From positions 32,001 through 96,000 of IMG/VR virus record IMGVR_UViG_3300023174_000089: DNA of 64,000 nt; one strand, 5' to 3'. The notes under the pieces were generated by a model. It did no database searches. It had not been told where the DNA came from and saw only the letters and a program-made list of their open reading frames with translations. The translations under genes and the position numbers were made by a program. Shown here piece by piece: positions 1 to 38,971 of the stretch; position 1 is the first letter of the stretch; each line of letters begins with the position of its first letter. The stretch comes from a virus.

Positions 1-7261
<7,261 letters not shown>

Positions 7262-7300
7262 GGTTCACTATCCCCTTTGATTTAAAACATACTTCTATAA

Positions 7301-8461
7301 CTAAGTATTTAGTTTAATAGTTTGAGGCAAATCGTGAGGATAATTTTTCTTTAACCAATTCAATTGAAGTCTTGCATCATTTCTTTCATACCAACCATTA
7401 CCAGTGTAAACATTTAAAACGGATTGAAAATATTCCTCATACATTTTGCCAACTTTCTCCAATGTAAAGTTTTCAGCAAAAGCACGACAATTTTTAGGAT
7501 TTATATTGTGTATATTTTGTGCAGCCCACATAAATTGTTCAAAAGTTCTACAACGATAACCGGTAATACCATGAATATTATTTTCTGTAAATGAACCCCA
7601 ATCGGTTGTAATAGTAGGAGTTCCAGAGAACAACATTTCTACCTGAACACCGCCAAAAGGTTCAACATACATTGATGGCACAAAGGCTGCTTTTGCACCA
7701 GACATTAATTTTCTTCGTGTTTCAACGTCAGCATAACCAATTTCAGTAACATGAGCTGGTATTTCTTTGTAACCCATTTGTGTCAATGAGTTTTGACCAG
7801 CAATAACTAATTTTGCACCTATTGCTTCAGTCGCTTGAACGGCAACATTAACACCTTTGCCATCATACACACGACCTAAGAATAGAAAGTAATCTTCTTT
7901 TTTCTCCTGAAAAGTAAAATCATCAGGATCGAAATAGTTTGGAATTACTGCATCATACCAATCTTGTTTACAACTGCCAACTGCTGTCATTCCATAATAA
8001 GCGTGATAGATTGCATATGATTCAAATATTTTCCAACGAGCCCAATGGCCACCAGCATAACCAATTCCTGGTTCTACACAGATCATATCAGAGTGTGCAT
8101 CACAAACTGGACGAACACCAGAACCCCAAAATGGAAGAATGAAATCGTGTTTTTGTTTTCTTAGACCAACTTCACGGATGGCATTTTTATAAAATGTTTG
8201 ATAAGCGTGGTCATTGACATCAAACTTATAGAAGTTCTTCCGCCAGTCATAATCACCATAAGCAATTTCTAAATCTTTATTGGTGGTTACTGTAACGTGT
8301 TCATCACAAACTAAATTTGAATCTTCGTGACCATAGTGAATGATGGTATGGCCAAGAGCCTTCATCATTTTACCAAACTTAACTACCTTTTGTGTATAAG
8401 CACAGGCATTATATTCTTTTGAAGATACTGTATGTGGTAAACCTAAAATATGAAAACGCAT
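7301..8461 (-). CDS. Glycosyltransferase family 4 (GT-B)
   Basis: [12 protein letters not shown] and [16 protein letters not shown] motifs (E-x7-E). Confidence 0.9.
7306..7313 (-). promoter_or_regulatory. T4-type late promoter candidate (ACTAAATA) upstream of the fibre genes
   Basis: Variant of TATAAATA about 45 nt upstream of the 7261 start. Confidence 0.5.
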
Positions 8462-22642: not shown

Positions 22643-23185
22643 TTAAATTCTACTATAAAATATATGATTACCTATTTTTGTTACAACCTTATTTCTATTC
22701 CAACCAGGATTTACATAAGTTGCGTGGTAATACAACGCATTTGTTTCTGCTATCTTATCATGTAAAACTGGAACTGTCAATGCTCTTTTTGCAATTAAAT
22801 GAGATTCTTCCCATCTATACCGATCATGAATGTGTACCATTTCTTTGACCATACAAGTCCATGAGAATTGGCAAACTGTTCTTAAATTTTGATCAGTTGT
22901 TTTCTGATAAACAACCGAACATATATCTTTAGGGAAAATGCCACTATTTACACGGTTCAATGTGACCTGTGCTACGGCTAATTTACCTTCATATGTTTCG
23001 CCTGCTGATTCATAGTAAATGTTTTTAGCAAGGCATTCTACTTGTTTCTGATAATCTGCTGCAACTTGTTTTTGTGTTGCAGTTGTAACAAACTCTCTCG
23101 ATAGAGTTGGTGCTGTGTATACGATTGTCAATACTGCTAATACTACTGCTAATGTGTTAAACTTCTGTGTGTTAAATTTAAACAT
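22643..23185 (-). CDS. Cell wall hydrolase, SleB/Hydrolase_2 family, N-terminal membrane anchor
   Basis: CLAKNIYYESAGE...AVAQVTLNRV...CQFSW...YYHATYVNP.W...IGNHIFY. Confidence 0.9.
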   Translation of the reverse strand: MFKFNTQKFNTLAVVLAVLTIVYTAPTLSREFVTTATQKQVAADYQKQVECLAKNIYYESAGETYEGKLAVAQVTLNRVNSGIFPKDICSVVYQKTTDQNLRTVCQFSWTCMVKEMVHIHDRYRWEESHLIAKRALTVPVLHDKIAETNALYYHATYVNPGWNRNKVVTKIGNHIFYSRI

Positions 23186-23517: not shown

Positions 23518-23580
23518 TTACTTCTCCTTTTGTGTGTTGTGTGTGTTATCAGCGAAATGTGTGTGCTGATACATTATATA

Positions 23581-23884
23581 GGCCAGGTGATTCTGTTGCT
23601 AAGTTCACCTGGTGAAACTCCGCTTACCGTTTAGGCAGCAAGTGCAAACTTATTATCGTTAGCGTTTAATTTAATTTGCTTCTTCGGCCGAGTATCTTCA
23701 ACCCTAACGTCTTTAGCTTTGACGATTCTCCATTGTTCTAATTATTGCTATGTCGAATCTAGGCACCCCCATCAGAAGTATATTGCCACATTTGTGTTTG
23801 CTACCAAGAACCTGGTTCGTCAATATACTTTTGGTGGAGGTGGTGGGAATCGCACCCACGTCCACAACAACTTTGAAACAACTT
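23581..23884 (-). ncRNA. ssrA: Circularly permuted (two-piece) tmRNA; tag peptide ANDNKFALAA
   Basis: Acceptor piece ...GTGGG-TGCGATT-CCCAC-CACCTCC-ACCA ends at 23832 and comes before the coding piece starting GGGGGTG...ATTCGAC at 23770. The 7-bp acceptor stem has G3:U70. Tag ORF at 23663-23631. Outer ends approximate. Confidence 0.92.
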
Positions 23885-23992
23885 CTACGAATTTCCTAGA
23901 ATTAATAATGTTGCCATAACTAAAGCAACACCACCAATCCAATAATTAAATCTATTTACTTTTTTTTGTTCTACACAATCTTTACTAGGCAT
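23885..23992 (-). CDS. Small membrane protein (35 aa)
   Basis: MPSKDCVEQKKVNRFNYWIGGVALVMATLLILGNS; TAATG-coupled to the upstream ORF. Confidence 0.5.
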   Translation of the reverse strand: MPSKDCVEQKKVNRFNYWIGGVALVMATLLILGNS

Positions 23993-24167: not shown

Positions 24168-24827
24168 TTAATATTTACCACTTTTCTCATAATATGAAAT
24201 GGCGTTGACTAGACCTGTGATGTGGTCCTCGGTCTTTTGTTTGAATACGATTGGATGGTTATTCTCAACGGCCATAATGATTACTAGGTCGTGGATAGGT
24301 TCACCTATCAACTCCTCATACATCAACGCATAGGCGCTTGTTTGCCAAAAATAATCTTCAATATCTTCATGGCTTTTAACTTTTTTGGATGTTTTGAAAT
24401 CAATTACCGAAAGCACACCATCAAATTCGGCAATACAATCTACACGACCTGCCATATTCAATTGTTTTGACCAAAGTGCCTGTTCTTGGTAATGAATGTT
24501 ATTAATACGATTCAGGTGTGGTTTAATTGATAAGAACATTTCATGTGCATCAGGCATCACATTACCCAAATCTTCATTATTCAAATATCGTTCACATAGT
24601 GTATGAACATTTGTACCACGAGAAGTTGCTTTCTTGGTAATTGCATTAGCAACATCATCACCTACTTTATTACGCCATGCTTGAAAGATGTGTTTCTTTT
24701 GAGCACCAATCACTGTAGTGACTGATGGTAATTTTGTACCATCAGGCAGTTTGTAGAATCGTCTACCATCAGGAAAAGTTTCTGATTGTAAATCTTGTAA
24801 TTGTTTTGGTGGGCAGTAATTAAACAT
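24168..24827 (-). CDS. PD-(D/E)XK exonuclease (T4-like phage ExoA/Cas4-related fold)
   Basis: PSVTTV, RGTNVH, AGRVDC...IDFKTS, Q.SAYA motifs. Confidence 0.88.
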   Translation of the reverse strand: MFNYCPPKQLQDLQSETFPDGRRFYKLPDGTKLPSVTTVIGAQKKHIFQAWRNKVGDDVANAITKKATSRGTNVHTLCERYLNNEDLGNVMPDAHEMFLSIKPHLNRINNIHYQEQALWSKQLNMAGRVDCIAEFDGVLSVIDFKTSKKVKSHEDIEDYFWQTSAYALMYEELIGEPIHDLVIIMAVENNHPIVFKQKTEDHITGLVNAISYYEKSGKY

Positions 24828-25599
24828 TTTTTTTCGTCAAAAACTTTTCTTTTAATCTATCAAATAATGCTATATCTTCTGGTGTAAGAGTAACAGCATC
24901 TACATTTTTTCTATATTCTTTTGCTTGATTCTCAACTTGAAAGATATTCCCATAATATTTGAAATTTTTGGTGATTTGCCTTGTGTCATAGGCATCCATA
25001 ATTATATGATAACGATCTTCATCTGAATCATTTCTAATTTGGTGCCACAAATTCACCCACAGAATATAAACTGAACCATCAGCTGGCATATGTAGATTTT
25101 CACCTTGGCAGATATGCACACATTTCTTATTTGTAATTAATGGAATATGAATTCTTGCCATATAGTTATTTGTGTCTGAATCTTTATGAACCAAAGATTT
25201 TGAATGTGCCTGTAAACAAGATACCCTTGCTCGTCTAGGATAAAACCCTAATGATTCCAAATCATCCAACACTTCTTTAATATAACCAACACATCCTGCT
25301 GTTGGATTTTTATGTTCAAATCCTTCTGCGACATTCATATATTTCATGGCTTTATAATTATATTGGCCATTTGGAAAAAATACATCATTTGTTTCTTTAT
25401 CATCAGAATGATAAACTTCCCAACCATCTCGCCAATCACCAGTTCTAGACAATAATGTCCAACCACCAAAGCCATGGTATTCTAGTGTTTCAAATTCTTC
25501 ACCTTGAATCTGTTGTTTACCAAGAGTGAATACATTATTCTCAACCTCTTTTCTCAATCGGTCGATATCAACTTTATAATCCAACTTTTCATACCACAT
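24820..25599 (-). CDS. 2OG-Fe(II) oxygenase, Asp/Asn beta-hydroxylase-like
   Basis: RARV...HKD...RIHIPLITN...HMPADG...HQIRN...RYHII (HxD...H triad plus Arg). Start at MWYEK, TAATG-coupled. Confidence 0.8.
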   Translation of the reverse strand: MWYEKLDYKVDIDRLRKEVENNVFTLGKQQIQGEEFETLEYHGFGGWTLLSRTGDWRDGWEVYHSDDKETNDVFFPNGQYNYKAMKYMNVAEGFEHKNPTAGCVGYIKEVLDDLESLGFYPRRARVSCLQAHSKSLVHKDSDTNNYMARIHIPLITNKKCVHICQGENLHMPADGSVYILWVNLWHQIRNDSDEDRYHIIMDAYDTRQITKNFKYYGNIFQVENQAKEYRKNVDAVTLTPEDIALFDRLKEKFLTKKNV

Positions 25600-26162
25600 T
25601 ATAAGTTTCCTGTTTCTTTTAAAATTTGACACACATCTTGATAATAATACTGTGTACCTAGAGTAATGGCAAGCCTTTCACTCAAAACATTATTTGGTTT
25701 TACTGCGTGTGGTCGTGTTACATCAAGTAACCACACTTCATTATCTTTTGCGATGAATGATTCTGTTTTTTCCAAATCGTCCTCTTGGTAGATAAATCCA
25801 TTGGTTTGATTATCTATCTGATAGGTATTTGGTTGTTCATCTTTAAACTTATAAAACTGTGTTAAGCAATTTTCAGTTTTTATATAGAAGTTAATTGTTG
25901 AATTTATACCACTATCGGTGTGAGGAGGTATTGAATGGTTCACTTTCATTAAAGACATGAAGAAGTCTTTACGACATCTTTCCGGCAAAACAGAATATAT
26001 TTGTGGATGTAATAATGAATTCAAGTTTAAATATTGTATGCCTTTAAATTGGCCATCAATATTTACACCGTAAGATATTTGAACATCAAGTGGTTCATAA
26101 CCAGGAACAATGAAATTGTTTTTTAATTTAACAAAACTACTTCTTTGATTTCCATTCTTCAT
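25599..26162 (-). CDS. Putative 2OG-Fe(II)/cupin oxygenase
   Basis: IPPHTD...INFY...WLLDVTRPHAV...RLAITL. Confidence 0.7.
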   Translation of the reverse strand: MKNGNQRSSFVKLKNNFIVPGYEPLDVQISYGVNIDGQFKGIQYLNLNSLLHPQIYSVLPERCRKDFFMSLMKVNHSIPPHTDSGINSTINFYIKTENCLTQFYKFKDEQPNTYQIDNQTNGFIYQEDDLEKTESFIAKDNEVWLLDVTRPHAVKPNNVLSERLAITLGTQYYYQDVCQILKETGNL

Positions 26163-26499
26163 ATTGTTTCACGATTTGACATTCATAATCCCAATTAATA
26201 CCTTCATGTGGATTATCCTTAGCGGCTTGCCAAGGTTTACCCAAAATATGTTCGAGAATAGGAATGCCAGGATGTAATATTTTTTCTAATACATCAGCAT
26301 AATCAGTAAACATTTGAAACAACCGCTCTTTATCGGGTTGTTGTAGATTTAAAATGTCGCTGTTCAATTGAGTATCGAAATATTTTACGATATGTTTACG
26401 ATATAACTCAATTTCTTCTTCTGTAACAATACCATCACGGTTGATGTCGGCGTCTGCTACACCATCGTTATTTAAATCAATATCTTTAATATCAGACAT
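26137..26499 (-). CDS. Hypothetical protein with EF-hand-like acidic loops
   Basis: DLNNDG and DINRDGIVTEEE (Dx[DN]xDG motifs). Confidence 0.6.
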   Translation of the reverse strand: MSDIKDIDLNNDGVADADINRDGIVTEEEIELYRKHIVKYFDTQLNSDILNLQQPDKERLFQMFTDYADVLEKILHPGIPILEHILGKPWQAAKDNPHEGINWDYECQIVKQYEEWKSKK

Positions 26500-27475
26500 T
26501 TTCTAATTTCCCCTGAAACAGTTTTTCTTTAAATTCTATTAATTTACTTAGATATAGAGCTGTGTAATAAGTAAAAAATACAAGAGCCCAAATTGTGTAT
26601 ACGGCCAAGACTTGTTGTTTTCTATTTGATTTTGGTTTTGGTGGTATATAACTGACCACTCTACAGATAACTGTACCAATTTTCATAATGATACGACCCA
26701 TGGTGTTATCTTGTTTCAAAACACCCATCTTATAAGCCATATGTTCAGACCAAGGTGTTCCAATCTTAACAGCCATTTCAGTTGCAACAATCTTTTGTTC
26801 AATTTTACGGCGTGATTCTTTTTTGATCCAGAACATAAAATCTGGACCTTTAGCATTCATCCATGATGTAACGATACGAGCCCAACGGATATAACCACGA
26901 TAAACCCTCTTATCTGTTTTACGTAACATCTGGCCATATGCCTGATCAGCTGCCCATATTGTAGAACTCATTAGGCCTTTATCATACAAATCAGCACAAA
27001 CGATCTTAGAACAGTTACATGCACAGTTACAATTAAATGTTGCTGAAGCTGCGGCGCCACAATTGTAGCCTACAGTTGCATTACAGTTACAATTATATCC
27101 AGAAGAACAGTTACAATTGGCTTGAAGATACGATTGTGTATCACAGTTTGTGCAATTTATACCAGAACAATTTGTGCACTGAGATTCAAAGGCACCAAAA
27201 GGTAAACACTGCTGACATTGAATGTTTCCACAGTTACAGTTACAGTTTGTGCAATTTGTAGGAGGACAATTGGTATTTGAACAGTTACCATTATCACAGT
27301 TTCCGTCCATATTTCTCTGATAGTATGCTTTATCTTTAAAAGCATCCATGTTTGGACTGGCTGGAGGATTCTTTAAATAACCATTTAAAAACTGCAAAGA
27401 TGCAGAATATGTTGCACCTAAACCTAGTTCGGTCGTTACATCAGATGTCGATATTTGGCCACTTGGTGTTGTCAT
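26492..27475 (-). CDS. Asn-Cys-repeat protein; putative radical SAM substrate and possible virion protein
   Basis: 22 Cys in residues 59-155; N-terminal PSGQISTSDVTTELG; C-terminal KIVC...YRGYIRWA domain and a hydrophobic segment. Confidence 0.75.
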   Translation of the reverse strand: MTTPSGQISTSDVTTELGLGATYSASLQFLNGYLKNPPASPNMDAFKDKAYYQRNMDGNCDNGNCSNTNCPPTNCTNCNCNCGNIQCQQCLPFGAFESQCTNCSGINCTNCDTQSYLQANCNCSSGYNCNCNATVGYNCGAAASATFNCNCACNCSKIVCADLYDKGLMSSTIWAADQAYGQMLRKTDKRVYRGYIRWARIVTSWMNAKGPDFMFWIKKESRRKIEQKIVATEMAVKIGTPWSEHMAYKMGVLKQDNTMGRIIMKIGTVICRVVSYIPPKPKSNRKQQVLAVYTIWALVFFTYYTALYLSKLIEFKEKLFQGKLENV

Positions 27476-27502
27476 TTTACTGTCCGTTACAATTTATTGT
27501 AG

Positions 27503-27510
27503 TATTTATG
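27503..27510 (-). promoter_or_regulatory. Late promoter candidate (CATAAATA) upstream of the Cys-rich gene
   Basis: Shares ATAAATACTA with the gp48 late promoter and sits a similar ~28 nt from the ATG. Confidence 0.55.
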
Positions 27511-28951
27511 TTGTTTCCAACCGTGATTTTCCATATACTTCAATACCTTCTACCTGACCTATTTTTTCACTTACGACCTTGATGGGTATAACCTTTTTCT
27601 TTGGTTCCTCTTTGTGTTCATAGATTGTACCAAAAATATCTTGGCGTTCTAGGGGTAGACCTTCCGCCTTAATTAAAGTTGGAATGTAACCACCAGTAAT
27701 TTTCTCAATGGCCAAGGCAAACAATGGTACATTATCTGAATATGAGTTTGCACAAGATATATCCCAAAACTTTTCATCTAGGAACATACAAGCACCTTTA
27801 CATAGGTGTAAAACTGGACAACCGCTACATTCTTTACGATTACTCCAATGTGTAGAACTTTTGATTCGAACATTATCAAAATCATCTAGTGTTCCACTAT
27901 GGTGACTTTCACCATTTTTACCCATTTCTAAAGAACTTACGTTTTGACAGGTCATAACATTACCACGCAGGTCAACAGCAAGGGTGTGTTCATCATCCAT
28001 GCCACACTTTTGACCTAAGAATTTAGAATTTGTGTGTGTTAATACTGAACCAATAAACCCATCGATTTTGGCCAACTGGCCAAAGAATCCTATTTTACCT
28101 TGTGTGGTGAATATATCAGCAAATGCTGTTCTACGATATTCAAAGTGTTCTTGTTTTGTTTGTAATGAATTAACGATACCATCTTCATCATAAGCGTCAA
28201 CAATACCACCTTCACCCAATACAACATTTGGATCACCGGTTAGTTTAACAAACCATTCATAAATTTCTTTACGTGATTTGTTTTTCGAATTCATCATTGG
28301 GTTGAAACTAAATGATTTACCCAATCTACTCATCATACGGTGAAATCCAAGAATTCTTTTCTTGGCTTCTGGATCATCAAATGGATCTGGCCCACGAACT
28401 GATTGTCCTGGTCCATCATGTGATATTGATACGGAGAAATCCATCATCATCAACCAATCAATGATATCATCAGTTAGAATTGACCCGTTGGTAATGATAG
28501 AGAATTGTGGTTTTCTTTTCCAATCAGAAAACTTTTCTGCAATAGTTTCGGCCAAAGGTTTTAATGTTTTCCAATATACAAGTGGTTCACCACCCCAAAA
28601 CTCAACTCTTAAGCCAGACTGTTCATCAAATTCTAGTTTGTTAAATTTTTCCATAAAAGAATCGATATCTTTTTTGGATGTTTCTGGCATTCTTTCAACA
28701 AATTTCTGTGAACAATAATCGCAGGAGTAGTTACAACTCAAACCTAATTGAATTTTAATATGTTTAACTAATCTAGATTTTTTGAGTGGATTATTCTTGT
28801 CGAATGGGACATAAGGTTTTAAACCATGTGGTTGAATATTATTGTATTGTAATATGTTTCCATTTTCATCAGACAATATGTTGGTCATATTATCATAATA
28901 AAAAATCCTCTTATCGTCTTTTGACTTCTCGGTGTGTATTTCAAATAACAT
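27506..28951 (-). CDS. Radical SAM/SPASM domain protein (peptide-maturase-like)
   Basis: CNYSCDYC, FWGGEP, ITNG, ISHDG; SPASM Cys pattern KCG...GNVMTC...CSGCPVLHLCKGAC...C. Confidence 0.92.
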   Translation of the reverse strand: MLFEIHTEKSKDDKRIFYYDNMTNILSDENGNILQYNNIQPHGLKPYVPFDKNNPLKKSRLVKHIKIQLGLSCNYSCDYCSQKFVERMPETSKKDIDSFMEKFNKLEFDEQSGLRVEFWGGEPLVYWKTLKPLAETIAEKFSDWKRKPQFSIITNGSILTDDIIDWLMMMDFSVSISHDGPGQSVRGPDPFDDPEAKKRILGFHRMMSRLGKSFSFNPMMNSKNKSRKEIYEWFVKLTGDPNVVLGEGGIVDAYDEDGIVNSLQTKQEHFEYRRTAFADIFTTQGKIGFFGQLAKIDGFIGSVLTHTNSKFLGQKCGMDDEHTLAVDLRGNVMTCQNVSSLEMGKNGESHHSGTLDDFDNVRIKSSTHWSNRKECSGCPVLHLCKGACMFLDEKFWDISCANSYSDNVPLFALAIEKITGGYIPTLIKAEGLPLERQDIFGTIYEHKEEPKKKVIPIKVVSEKIGQVEGIEVYGKSRLETT

Positions 28952-29214
28952 TATTTTTCCTGTAGTCCTTTAGTTGTTCTACTTCTCTTTGTTGTTTTAT
29001 ATATTCTATTAGTTCCTGTCGAACTCTTTCCTTGTTGTGATATTCGTAATATAGCCGCTGTTGTTTTGACATCATTCTTTTTTTGCTCATTAAAACTCCT
29101 ATCGTTATTATTGTATTTTGGAATTTTAGAAGCAGGTTCTACAGGATTAACTTTGCCATTATCTGACCTCCTGATATTAAGTAGATGGGGAATTTGACTA
29201 TTCACTGTTACCAT
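28951..29214 (-). CDS. Hypothetical protein (frame uncertain)
   Basis: Fills the gap, but an alternative-frame ORF (MSKQQRLYYEY...) overlaps it. Confidence 0.3.
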   Translation of the reverse strand: MVTVNSQIPHLLNIRRSDNGKVNPVEPASKIPKYNNNDRSFNEQKKNDVKTTAAILRISQQGKSSTGTNRIYKTTKRSRTTKGLQEK

Positions 29215-38885: not shown

Positions 38886-38971
38886 TGGTGGGTAAGGATG
38901 GATTCGAACCAACTCAGCCTGAGGCAACGGATTTACAGTCCGCTGTAGCTCTCCAACTCTACGGCTTACCC
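38886..38971 (-). tRNA. tRNA-Tyr(GUA)
   Basis: GGGTAAG/CTTACCC acceptor stem, GCGGA-CTGTAAA-TCCGT anticodon arm, long variable arm, GGTTCGAATCC, encoded CCA. Confidence 0.93.

Follow-up and report, generated by a model that had tools for sequence, protein, structure and literature searches.

A radical SAM/SPASM enzyme paired with Asn-Cys-rich, putatively fibre-type proteins in a T4-like freshwater phage and its relatives: a proposed modification of phage fibres

We analysed a 64-kb window of viral DNA (bases 32001-96000 of a 114,873-bp IMG/VR viral contig with an estimated completeness of 68%), which comes from an uncultured T4-like freshwater myovirus with a G+C content of about 35%. On its minus strand, at 24820-28951, the window carries a five-gene cassette that begins with a radical S-adenosylmethionine (SAM) enzyme bearing a full SPASM domain. 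The gene directly downstream encodes a protein of 327 amino acids (aa) in which Asn-Cys pairs recur and end in a short ladder of alternating Cys residues. Our main finding is that enzyme and ladder predict each other in distantly related phage loci, and this pairing is well supported. We consider it rather likely that the enzyme post-translationally modifies the Asn-Cys-rich part of the adjacent fibre-type protein, presumably by forming thioethers, and that oxygenases tailor the product. Phages with this enzyme family probably modify the host-binding tip of their fibres chemically. The cassette comprises the following features:

27506..28951, minus strand: radical SAM enzyme with a full SPASM domain, 481 aa (Pfam, NCBIfam, phrog_1802)
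27503..27510, minus strand: box CATAAATA, a possible but weak T4-type late promoter, 27 nucleotides (nt) upstream of the ATG of the Asn-Cys gene and overlapping the stop codon of the enzyme gene
26492..27475, minus strand: Asn-Cys protein, putative substrate, 327 aa, made of an N-terminal segment, a Cys-rich part and a helical module
26996..27301, minus strand: Cys-rich region of the Asn-Cys protein (residues 59-160), ending in the ladder NCNCACNCS, then KIVC
26495..27007, minus strand: C-terminal all-helical module of the same protein (residues ~157-327), with a hydrophobic last helix and starting at a conserved xIIC motif
26137..26499, minus strand: 120-aa protein with two N-terminal Dx[DN]xDG loops and a conserved helical core
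25599..26162, minus strand: probable 2-oxoglutarate (2OG)-Fe(II) oxygenase, 187 aa, with H81-x-D83...H152...R163
24820..25632, minus strand: AspH-type 2OG-Fe(II) oxygenase, 270 aa from a GTG start (Pfam Asp_Arg_Hydrox)

An earlier note on this DNA, made from its letters alone, had described five tightly packed, co-oriented genes, and the open reading frames (ORFs) are indeed all present. A gap of 30 nt follows the first gene, and the remaining junctions are overlaps of 8, 26 and 34 nt, the last of which would shrink to 1 nt if Met12 is the true start of the 270-aa protein.

Co-occurrence of enzyme and ladder across phage genomes

Distant loci were gathered by IMG/VR scans with alignments of three clades of the enzyme family; scans with the single proteins of Achromobacter phage JWF and Ralstonia phage RSP15 yielded almost nothing. 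A locus was called distant when its enzyme was less than 58% identical to that of the window, which gave 143 distinct loci, 113 of them with at least 4 kb of upstream sequence. In the forward direction, a co-oriented ORF with an xCxCxC ladder was found in 104 of these 113 loci; only 7 of the 143 have a ladder on the other strand. In 234 kb of control loci lacking the enzyme, xCxCxC was confined to short, mostly antisense chance ORFs. In the reverse direction, the enzyme was ignored and IMG/VR was scanned for DNA encoding (Asn-Cys)5, non-genic repeats and duplicates were removed, and a C-terminal ladder was retained if its ORF measured at least 80 aa and was followed by 3.5 kb or more of downstream sequence. 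An enzyme homologue lies downstream on the same strand of every distinct ladder so selected (24/24). Taken together, the two tests establish that enzyme and ladder predict each other. They lend strong support to the earlier proposal of a dedicated enzyme paired with the phage's own Asn-Cys protein, in that the homologues overwhelmingly have a Cys-ladder gene as a neighbour, and the window enzyme itself scores far below the cut-off for anaerobic sulfatase maturases (49.2 bits with the NCBIfam model TIGR03942, cut-off 349).

Closer relatives, with an enzyme 61-80% identical to that of the window, are found on about 80 IMG/VR contigs, which keep the order enzyme, Asn-Cys protein, 120-aa protein where there is one, 187-aa protein and 270-aa protein, even where the flanking genes differ. 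A comparison of the whole cassette with cultured phage records by megablast gave no match.

The nearest cultured relatives of the enzyme itself, at 43-46% identity, are those of phages RSP15 and JWF, and in both the enzyme gene stands among tail-fibre genes. The side-fibre gene of RSP15 ends in NTNCQCGN, and the run QNCNCDCNCNCS in the JWF fibre gp028 is followed at once by the first Cys of a Hint domain, which Pfam scores at 47.5 bits from residue 308. In 74 distant loci the protein terminates with the ladder; these proteins measure 120-730 aa and typically finish in runs such as NCNCNCDCNCNCNC or NCNCACNCNCACNCNC. Five of the ten ladder proteins tested from distant loci match a tail-fibre PHROG family, and in one locus, L377, the ladder abuts a Peptidase_S74 domain (29.2 bits vs 22). 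In sister lineages whose enzyme is 59-66% identical, a small protein shares the N-terminal and Cys-rich parts but ends just past the ladder, lacks the helical module, and is encoded directly behind a Peptidase_S74-bearing fibre gene. Tail-fibre proteins attach via their N-terminus, and a C-terminal ladder therefore lies at the distal, host-facing end, where processing by Hint or Peptidase_S74, both of them self-cleaving modules, would leave it as the mature C-terminus. The earlier note had offered either a virion adhesin or a released peptide as the product; since the ladder elsewhere ends proteins of tail-fibre families, the adhesin or fibre part is favoured and the released peptide disfavoured.

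The commonest partner besides the enzyme in distant loci is a protein like RSP15 gp047 (243-412 aa; for example in L122 and L203), whose gene comes next after the ladder-bearing fibre gene in 32 of the 65 loci. It matches no known family and is possibly a chaperone or a recognition subunit. We further observed, in some distant loci (L191, L194, L196, L202, L209, L212 and L278), a second radical SAM protein of about 335-340 aa (Pfam 43.3 bits) whose gene lies about 1 kb ahead of the main SPASM enzyme gene and directly precedes it; such loci may hold a two-enzyme version of the system. Variant ladders also occur that contain a PVDC(A/N)C repeat or finish in, for example, CDCACW (L080:7490-7972 and the small ladder proteins of L180 and L189), and in these three loci the small protein is encoded upstream, not downstream, of the enzyme gene.

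The enzyme, its putative substrate and the accompanying oxygenases

The 481-aa protein passes the cut-offs of Pfam Radical_SAM (PF04055; 35.5 bits, cut-off 29.5) and of the NCBIfam SPASM model TIGR04085 (33.9 bits, cut-off 27), in agreement with its earlier assignment from a CxxxCxxC motif and a SPASM Cys pattern, and it matches phrog_1802 with an E of 2e-64. The CxxxCxxC motif is C73/C77/C80. The SPASM cysteines are C316, C335, C375, C378, C384, C388 and C400, with the spacing Cx13Gx4C...CxxCx5Cx3C...C, and all seven, together with G330, are invariant or nearly so in 56 diverse relatives; the enzyme is predicted to hold three [4Fe-4S] sites. Its AlphaFold2 model is confident, with a predicted local distance difference test score (pLDDT) of 93.5, and the top Foldseek matches are anSMEcpe (4K36-39), which is the best with an E of 7.6e-13, CteB (5WHY/5WGG), ChlB (9GM3), TigE (8VPO), SuiB and SkfB. 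By sequence, the closest solved structures are TigE, CteB and ChlB. Each of these nearest solved relatives (anSME, CteB, ChlB, TigE, SuiB, SkfB) acts on a peptide or protein, in which it modifies Cys or another residue.

Against the named NCBIfam maturase families, the enzyme scores best with PapB (NF047865), at 77.1 bits for a cut-off of 340 and over the N-terminal core only (residues 64-182), followed by QhpD (TIGR03906; 69.9 bits, cut-off 453) and the CrpC family (TIGR04463; 49.5 bits, cut-off 525). Because it lies far below every named thioether-maturase cut-off, its reaction type is argued by analogy. The family has many members, with 293 representatives of clusters at 50% identity found at E <= 1e-30, and 2801 matches at E <= 1e-10 in 90% clusters, none of them informatively named. 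A complex prediction of the enzyme with residues 1-165 of the Asn-Cys protein returned a score of 0.00, which gives no verdict and is not evidence either way.

The putative substrate matches nothing in Pfam, PHROG or NCBIfam. It contains 24 Cys, and 23 of them fall in residues 51-160, where the earlier note had counted 22 in residues 59-155; its picture of a Cys-rich protein downstream of the enzyme thus stands. The residue before these 23 Cys is Asn in 18 cases, Gln in three, and Ala and Val once each. Across 60 members of the family, Asn precedes 78% of the Cys in this region, and the other Cys mostly follow Ala, Gln or Asp. Asn also occupies position -3 (NxxC) at 9 of the 23 Cys and at 34% of those in the family, a spacing that terminal NCNC ladders meet by construction. 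Within the Cys-rich region C60, N110-C111, Y127-N128-C129 and C153-N154-C155-S156-K157-I158-C160 are invariant, and residues 1-45 form a conserved N-terminal segment. AlphaFold2 yields no confident fold for the Cys-rich region (pLDDT about 30). No other real ORF contains the xCxCxC motif, either in the 64-kb window or in the entire 114.9-kb contig, and a word-based search with the N-terminal 58 aa returned close relatives only.

The helical module is modelled with pLDDT 81-93 over most of residues 160-327, and its C-terminal helix (residues ~292-314) is strongly hydrophobic here and amphipathic in some relatives. It has no meaningful structural match (best Foldseek E 0.93; best VIA Z 6.5, which is noise for helical proteins), and a search for the module among longer proteins gave no match. 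The module also ends long fibre-like proteins without a ladder, where it follows poly-Gly or poly-Pro linkers and starts at the same conserved xIIC motif. It occurs on proteins containing DUF4815 and also ends gp028 of Synechococcus phage SynMITS9220M01, whose gene lies beside fibre genes. Cys are few (1-7, in up to 1785 residues) in homologues of the module that lack an enzyme neighbour, against 13-25 in those adjacent to the enzyme. Since the same module follows linkers on ladder-less fibre-like proteins, we read it as what may be a portable C-terminal unit for assembly or anchoring, possibly removed afterwards.

Of the two oxygenases that the earlier note had named, the 270-aa protein is the firmer. 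It passes Pfam Asp_Arg_Hydrox (PF05118) with 40.5 bits against a cut-off of 22.6, H149-x-D151...H197 is conserved in at least 90% of 52 relatives, R200 and R207 are conserved as well, and there are weak PDB sequence matches to a 'Beta-hydroxylase' (7V4F) and to proline cis-4-hydroxylase (4P7W). Met12 is conserved in at least 90% of its relatives and is probably the true start. The 187-aa protein has H81-x-D83...H152...R163 invariant in 18 relatives, as expected from the HxD...H motif first noticed, and has no match in Pfam, PHROG, NCBIfam or PDB sequences; for these reasons we grade it a probable 2OG-Fe(II) oxygenase only. In the ESM Atlas, the named clusters nearest to it are 2OG-FeII_Oxy_3 and Asp_Arg_Hydrox, whose score of 0.89 is no more than a lead. 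The 120-aa protein, with homologues in most but not all related loci, does have the two Dx[DN]xDG loops that had been taken as EF-hand-like, one of which, DINRDGIVTEEE, fits the canonical pattern by eye. Its score with EF-hand_1 (PF00036) is below the Pfam cut-off (14.5 bits, cut-off 25.4) and the loops are confined to a subclade (11 of 35 relatives), and the EF-hand reading is therefore weak. The residues conserved throughout this family are L52, F61, M63, Y67, Y113 and W116.

Oxygenases accompany the pair in distant loci as well. Between the ladder and enzyme genes, a 2OG-oxygenase-like family just below the Pfam cut-off (family 0) was found in 28 of 65 loci, and a 2OG-oxygenase family above it (family 4) in 8 of 65. 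This position suggests that oxygenases are part of the system, not mere cargo. When the two window oxygenases were compared, profile against profile, with gene families from the distant loci, the matches were weak (E about 1e-3), and we claim no orthology for them. Related loci add or swap other redox enzymes, namely 2OG-FeII_Oxy_5, B12-type radical SAM, fatty-acid-desaturase-like and tryptophan-halogenase-like flavoenzymes; examples of the last three kinds are at L017:13824-15338, L160:5990-7513, L007:9446-10884, L160:11177-12295 and L180:10098-11618. Among related cassettes, two tandem fatty-acid-desaturase-like proteins are inserted between the enzyme gene and the Asn-Cys gene.

Proposed chemistry and competing explanations

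From the pairing we infer a direct enzyme-substrate relation, for which the following mechanism is proposed. A ladder Cys would bind an auxiliary Fe-S cluster of the enzyme, the 5'-deoxyadenosyl radical would take a hydrogen from a neighbouring residue, mostly Asn, and a thioether (Cys S to carbon) would form between the ladder Cys and that neighbour, chiefly Asn. Repeated along the ladder, this reaction would make a rigid, cross-linked and reduction-proof knot out of a floppy Asn-Cys stretch. Both oxygenases, the AspH-type one and the probable second one, may tailor the same protein, for example by hydroxylating Asn or other side chains. The substrate would be a fibre-type component of the virion, not a small secreted peptide, and the helical module of the window protein, possibly membrane-associated, may play a removable assembly role like that of Hint or Peptidase_S74. 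By analogy with all characterised SPASM enzymes whose substrates are Cys-rich, the thioether is the most likely reaction. The strict Asn-before-Cys grammar (73-78%) makes Asn look like a partner in the reaction, not a spacer.

A more specific version can be put forward only tentatively, as we think it somewhat doubtful. In several unrelated tail types, the radical SAM enzyme, often with oxygenases, would weld the Asn-Cys ladder into the thioether-stapled tip of a trimeric receptor-binding fibre, possibly with links between chains, and the tip would be exposed after removal of a C-terminal chaperone, Hint or helical module.

Several known systems resemble parts of this proposal, and for the thioether chemistry NxxcB, PapB with CteB, QhpD and CrpC are four precedents established by experiment. 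PapB, of the ranthipeptides, and CteB, of SCIFF, are thioether-forming SPASM enzymes with two auxiliary clusters and Cys-rich cores. PapB is the best NCBIfam match of the window enzyme and CteB is among its best PDB matches by sequence and structure, but both have an N-terminal RiPP recognition element (RRE; RiPP, ribosomally synthesised and post-translationally modified peptide), a leader peptide and small-peptide products, and the scores are far below the cut-offs. anSMEcpe has no RRE, none being recognised in the window enzyme either, and targets Cys in a protein substrate; in contrast to the system proposed here, its product is formylglycine and no cross-link is made, and no sulfatase gene or motif was seen here. 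As for the oxygenases, AspH-type Asp/Asn beta-hydroxylases act on Cys-rich EGF domains, and the 270-aa protein is encoded beside an Asn- and Cys-rich protein, a likeness that covers the catalytic half only (residues 117-215).

Another close system is CrpC/CrpA of Methanococcus voltae, in which a SPASM enzyme with three [4Fe-4S] clusters puts ranthionine thioethers into a whole adjacent Cys-rich protein (PMC13692751, 2026). There too a SPASM enzyme stands beside an entire Cys-rich protein, and the Cys cluster of CrpA lies towards the C-terminus; unlike the window system, CrpC/CrpA is archaeal and cellular, CrpC has a predicted RRE, and CrpA has neither the Asn-Cys grammar nor a link to fibres. 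A likeness in substrate pattern is offered by the streptococcal RiPP enzyme NxxcB, which joins the Cys sulphur to the beta-carbon of an Asn three residues upstream and tolerates Ala, Gln and Asp as acceptors (PMC9389541). An Asn-Cys run is a series of overlapping NxxC units and so fits this precedent for a Cys-Asn linkage, and the tolerated acceptors are the very residues that replace Asn before Cys in the phage family. NxxcA is a short quorum-regulated peptide of Gram-positive cocci, whereas the phage substrate is a 327-aa protein or a whole fibre. Finally, in QhpD/QhpC/QhpG a radical SAM/SPASM enzyme cross-links Cys to Asp or Glu in a protein subunit, on which an oxygenase then acts (PMC7876137). 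The sequence of a radical SAM enzyme and then an oxygenase is that of the proposed phage pathway, but the Qhp product is a periplasmic quinohaemoprotein amine dehydrogenase subunit with a quinone cofactor, and the oxygenase is a flavoprotein.

Radical-SAM thioether chemistry has been described in small antimicrobial peptides, in a single bacterial enzyme subunit and, as of 2026, in a single Cys-rich protein of an archaeon. In the literature we found no description of radical SAM modification of phage tail fibres or of Cys-rich phage proteins and no paper reporting radical-SAM thioether chemistry for a virus particle; one cyanophage paper lists a 'radical SAM maturase' merely as an antibiotic-synthesis gene. 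A known type of chemistry would here be carried out by a new enzyme family in a new biological setting. If the proposal is true, virion assembly gains an enzymatic cross-linking step, which would be a new class of virion post-translational modification and a new natural use of RiPP chemistry. It could explain the resistance of some fibres to proteases and reducing conditions, and would show that receptor-binding tips can carry chemistry that cannot be read from the gene. The family also offers new enzymes for stapling whole proteins, and, since cultured phages JWF and RSP15 belong to it, the hypothesis is directly testable.

Several observations weigh against our interpretation. Under the criterion used, the ladder ORF is missing in 9 of the 113 distant loci. 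The enzyme reaches none of the NCBIfam cut-offs for named thioether maturases, and its top structural neighbour, anSME, makes formylglycine from Cys without any cross-link. No canonical RRE, a leader-binding winged helix of three strands and three helices, was seen in the AlphaFold2 model, in which strands only (2-10, 13-20 and 25-27) and no helices precede the enzyme core, though no search aimed at an RRE was made. The window Asn-Cys protein has no fibre-family match and its gene stands outside the fibre genes, which lie about 20 kb away at 1-7261. Finally, the oxidative neighbour genes vary among related loci, and oxygenases of this kind are common cargo of aquatic T4-like phages.

Part of this evidence would suit other explanations. 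The enzyme might act on the ladder with a different chemistry, such as formylglycine formation, epimerisation or another radical reaction, or the ladder might bind a metal or Fe-S cluster in a trimeric tip, with the enzyme preparing or inserting the site. The top Foldseek matches (anSMEcpe 4K36-4K39) act on folded or unfolded protein substrates and have no RRE, nor was one recognised in this enzyme. No thioether-maturase cut-off is reached. With alternating Cys on an extended strand, all thiols would point to the same side, as suits metal binding, and the His-x-His iron sites in the needle of T4 gp37 offer a parallel for a metal-binding fibre tip. We nevertheless regard this explanation as unlikely. 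The score with the anSME model is far from its cut-off, Pfam, PHROG and NCBIfam scans of the cassette found no sulfatase gene nearby, and no CxPxR or CxAxR sulfatase motif was seen when the Cys-rich region was read by eye. The preference for Asn before Cys suggests Asn as a partner, against a formylglycine or metal reading, and the two-cluster SPASM enzymes with Cys-rich substrates (CteB, PapB, QhpD, NxxcB, CrpC) are all thioether-forming. Alternatively, the window protein could be a membrane-anchored protein of the infected cell, with a role in exclusion, lysis timing or envelope remodelling and a Cys-rich domain matured by the enzyme. The strongly hydrophobic C-terminal helix would suit a membrane anchor, the cassette stands among non-structural genes (the exonuclease, the SleB-type hydrolase and the gp32-like protein described below), and the lack of a fibre-family match agrees with such a role. 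It becomes quite improbable when relatives are considered, for the same module ends long fibre-like proteins with DUF4815 or collagen-like parts and a cyanophage protein among fibre genes, sister lineages without the module have the gene directly behind a fibre gene, and the last helix is amphipathic rather than hydrophobic in some relatives.

We think it very improbable that the cassette makes a released RiPP-like toxin or signal, with an N-terminal leader and a Cys-rich core that is cut out and exported, even though its content of SPASM enzyme, Cys-rich precursor and oxygenases, to which relatives add a B12-type radical SAM and a halogenase-like flavoenzyme, is RiPP-like. Neither a protease nor an exporter was recognised among the cassette genes (Pfam, PHROG, NCBIfam), and no RRE was recognised in the enzyme. 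The proteins that end in the ladder in distant loci measure 120-730 aa, five of the ten tested match tail-fibre families, and the first 45 residues of the Asn-Cys protein show a conservation like that of a structural attachment domain. We also considered a RiPP in the strict sense, with a short precursor, leader and core, and release by a protease; it was rejected, the substrate measuring 327 aa here and up to 730 aa elsewhere. Still harder to credit is the idea that the genes lie together in a variable genome region without being related, with the Cys-rich protein left unmodified. The gene content between and around them does vary among related contigs, and one freshwater contig appears to skip the cassette, a weak observation. 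The two-way co-occurrence across very different phage backbones (104/113 and 24/24) essentially excludes it, and modification of the Asn-Cys ladder by the enzyme, probably through thioethers, is the explanation that we prefer.

Genomic setting of the cassette

The window contains a gp32-type single-stranded DNA-binding protein, baseplate and tail genes, and collagen-like fibre genes, and near-identical DNA is present in freshwater metagenomes (lake, river and other) from several studies. The next gene after the cassette encodes a PD-(D/E)XK exonuclease and overlaps the last cassette gene by 8 nt. Features outside the cassette are:

7301-8461: glycosyltransferase, after the collagen-like fibre genes
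22643-23185, minus strand: SleB/Hydrolase_2-type cell-wall hydrolase (84.9 bits) with a hydrophobic N-terminal segment, two genes past the cassette
23580-23928, minus strand: circularly permuted (two-piece) tmRNA gene with the tag ANDNKFALAA (Rfam tmRNA_permuted, 112.4 bits vs 47)
38886-38971, minus strand: tRNA-Tyr (GTA) gene

The SleB/Hydrolase_2-type protein is a possible signal-anchored endolysin. The permuted tmRNA gene also scores 58 bits vs 50 with Rfam alpha_tmRNA, and this alphaproteobacterial type hints at an alphaproteobacterial host for the phage.

A T4-type late promoter upstream of the Asn-Cys gene is weakly suggested by the single CATAAATA box. There are only eight ATAAATA sites in the window, two of them within 60 nt upstream of a gene start, and the full TATAAATA consensus occurs only twice, below chance expectation. 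In an RNA run, a few 150-nt contigs fall on the Asn-Cys and enzyme genes, a signal too weak to use.

A contig from a freshwater metagenome (run X10) joins position 24828 to 29025 and skips 4196 bases, exactly the five-gene cassette, which suggests a relative without the cassette or with a replacement. This junction comes from a single contig with a depth of 5.6 and 90% likeness and, as a weak observation, was not used. At the far end of the window, bases 1-8000 differ in composition from the remainder, with a G+C content of 44-50% vs about 35% elsewhere, and encode very large collagen-like tail-fibre proteins, one of 1352 aa and another of more than 1067 aa that runs off the window.

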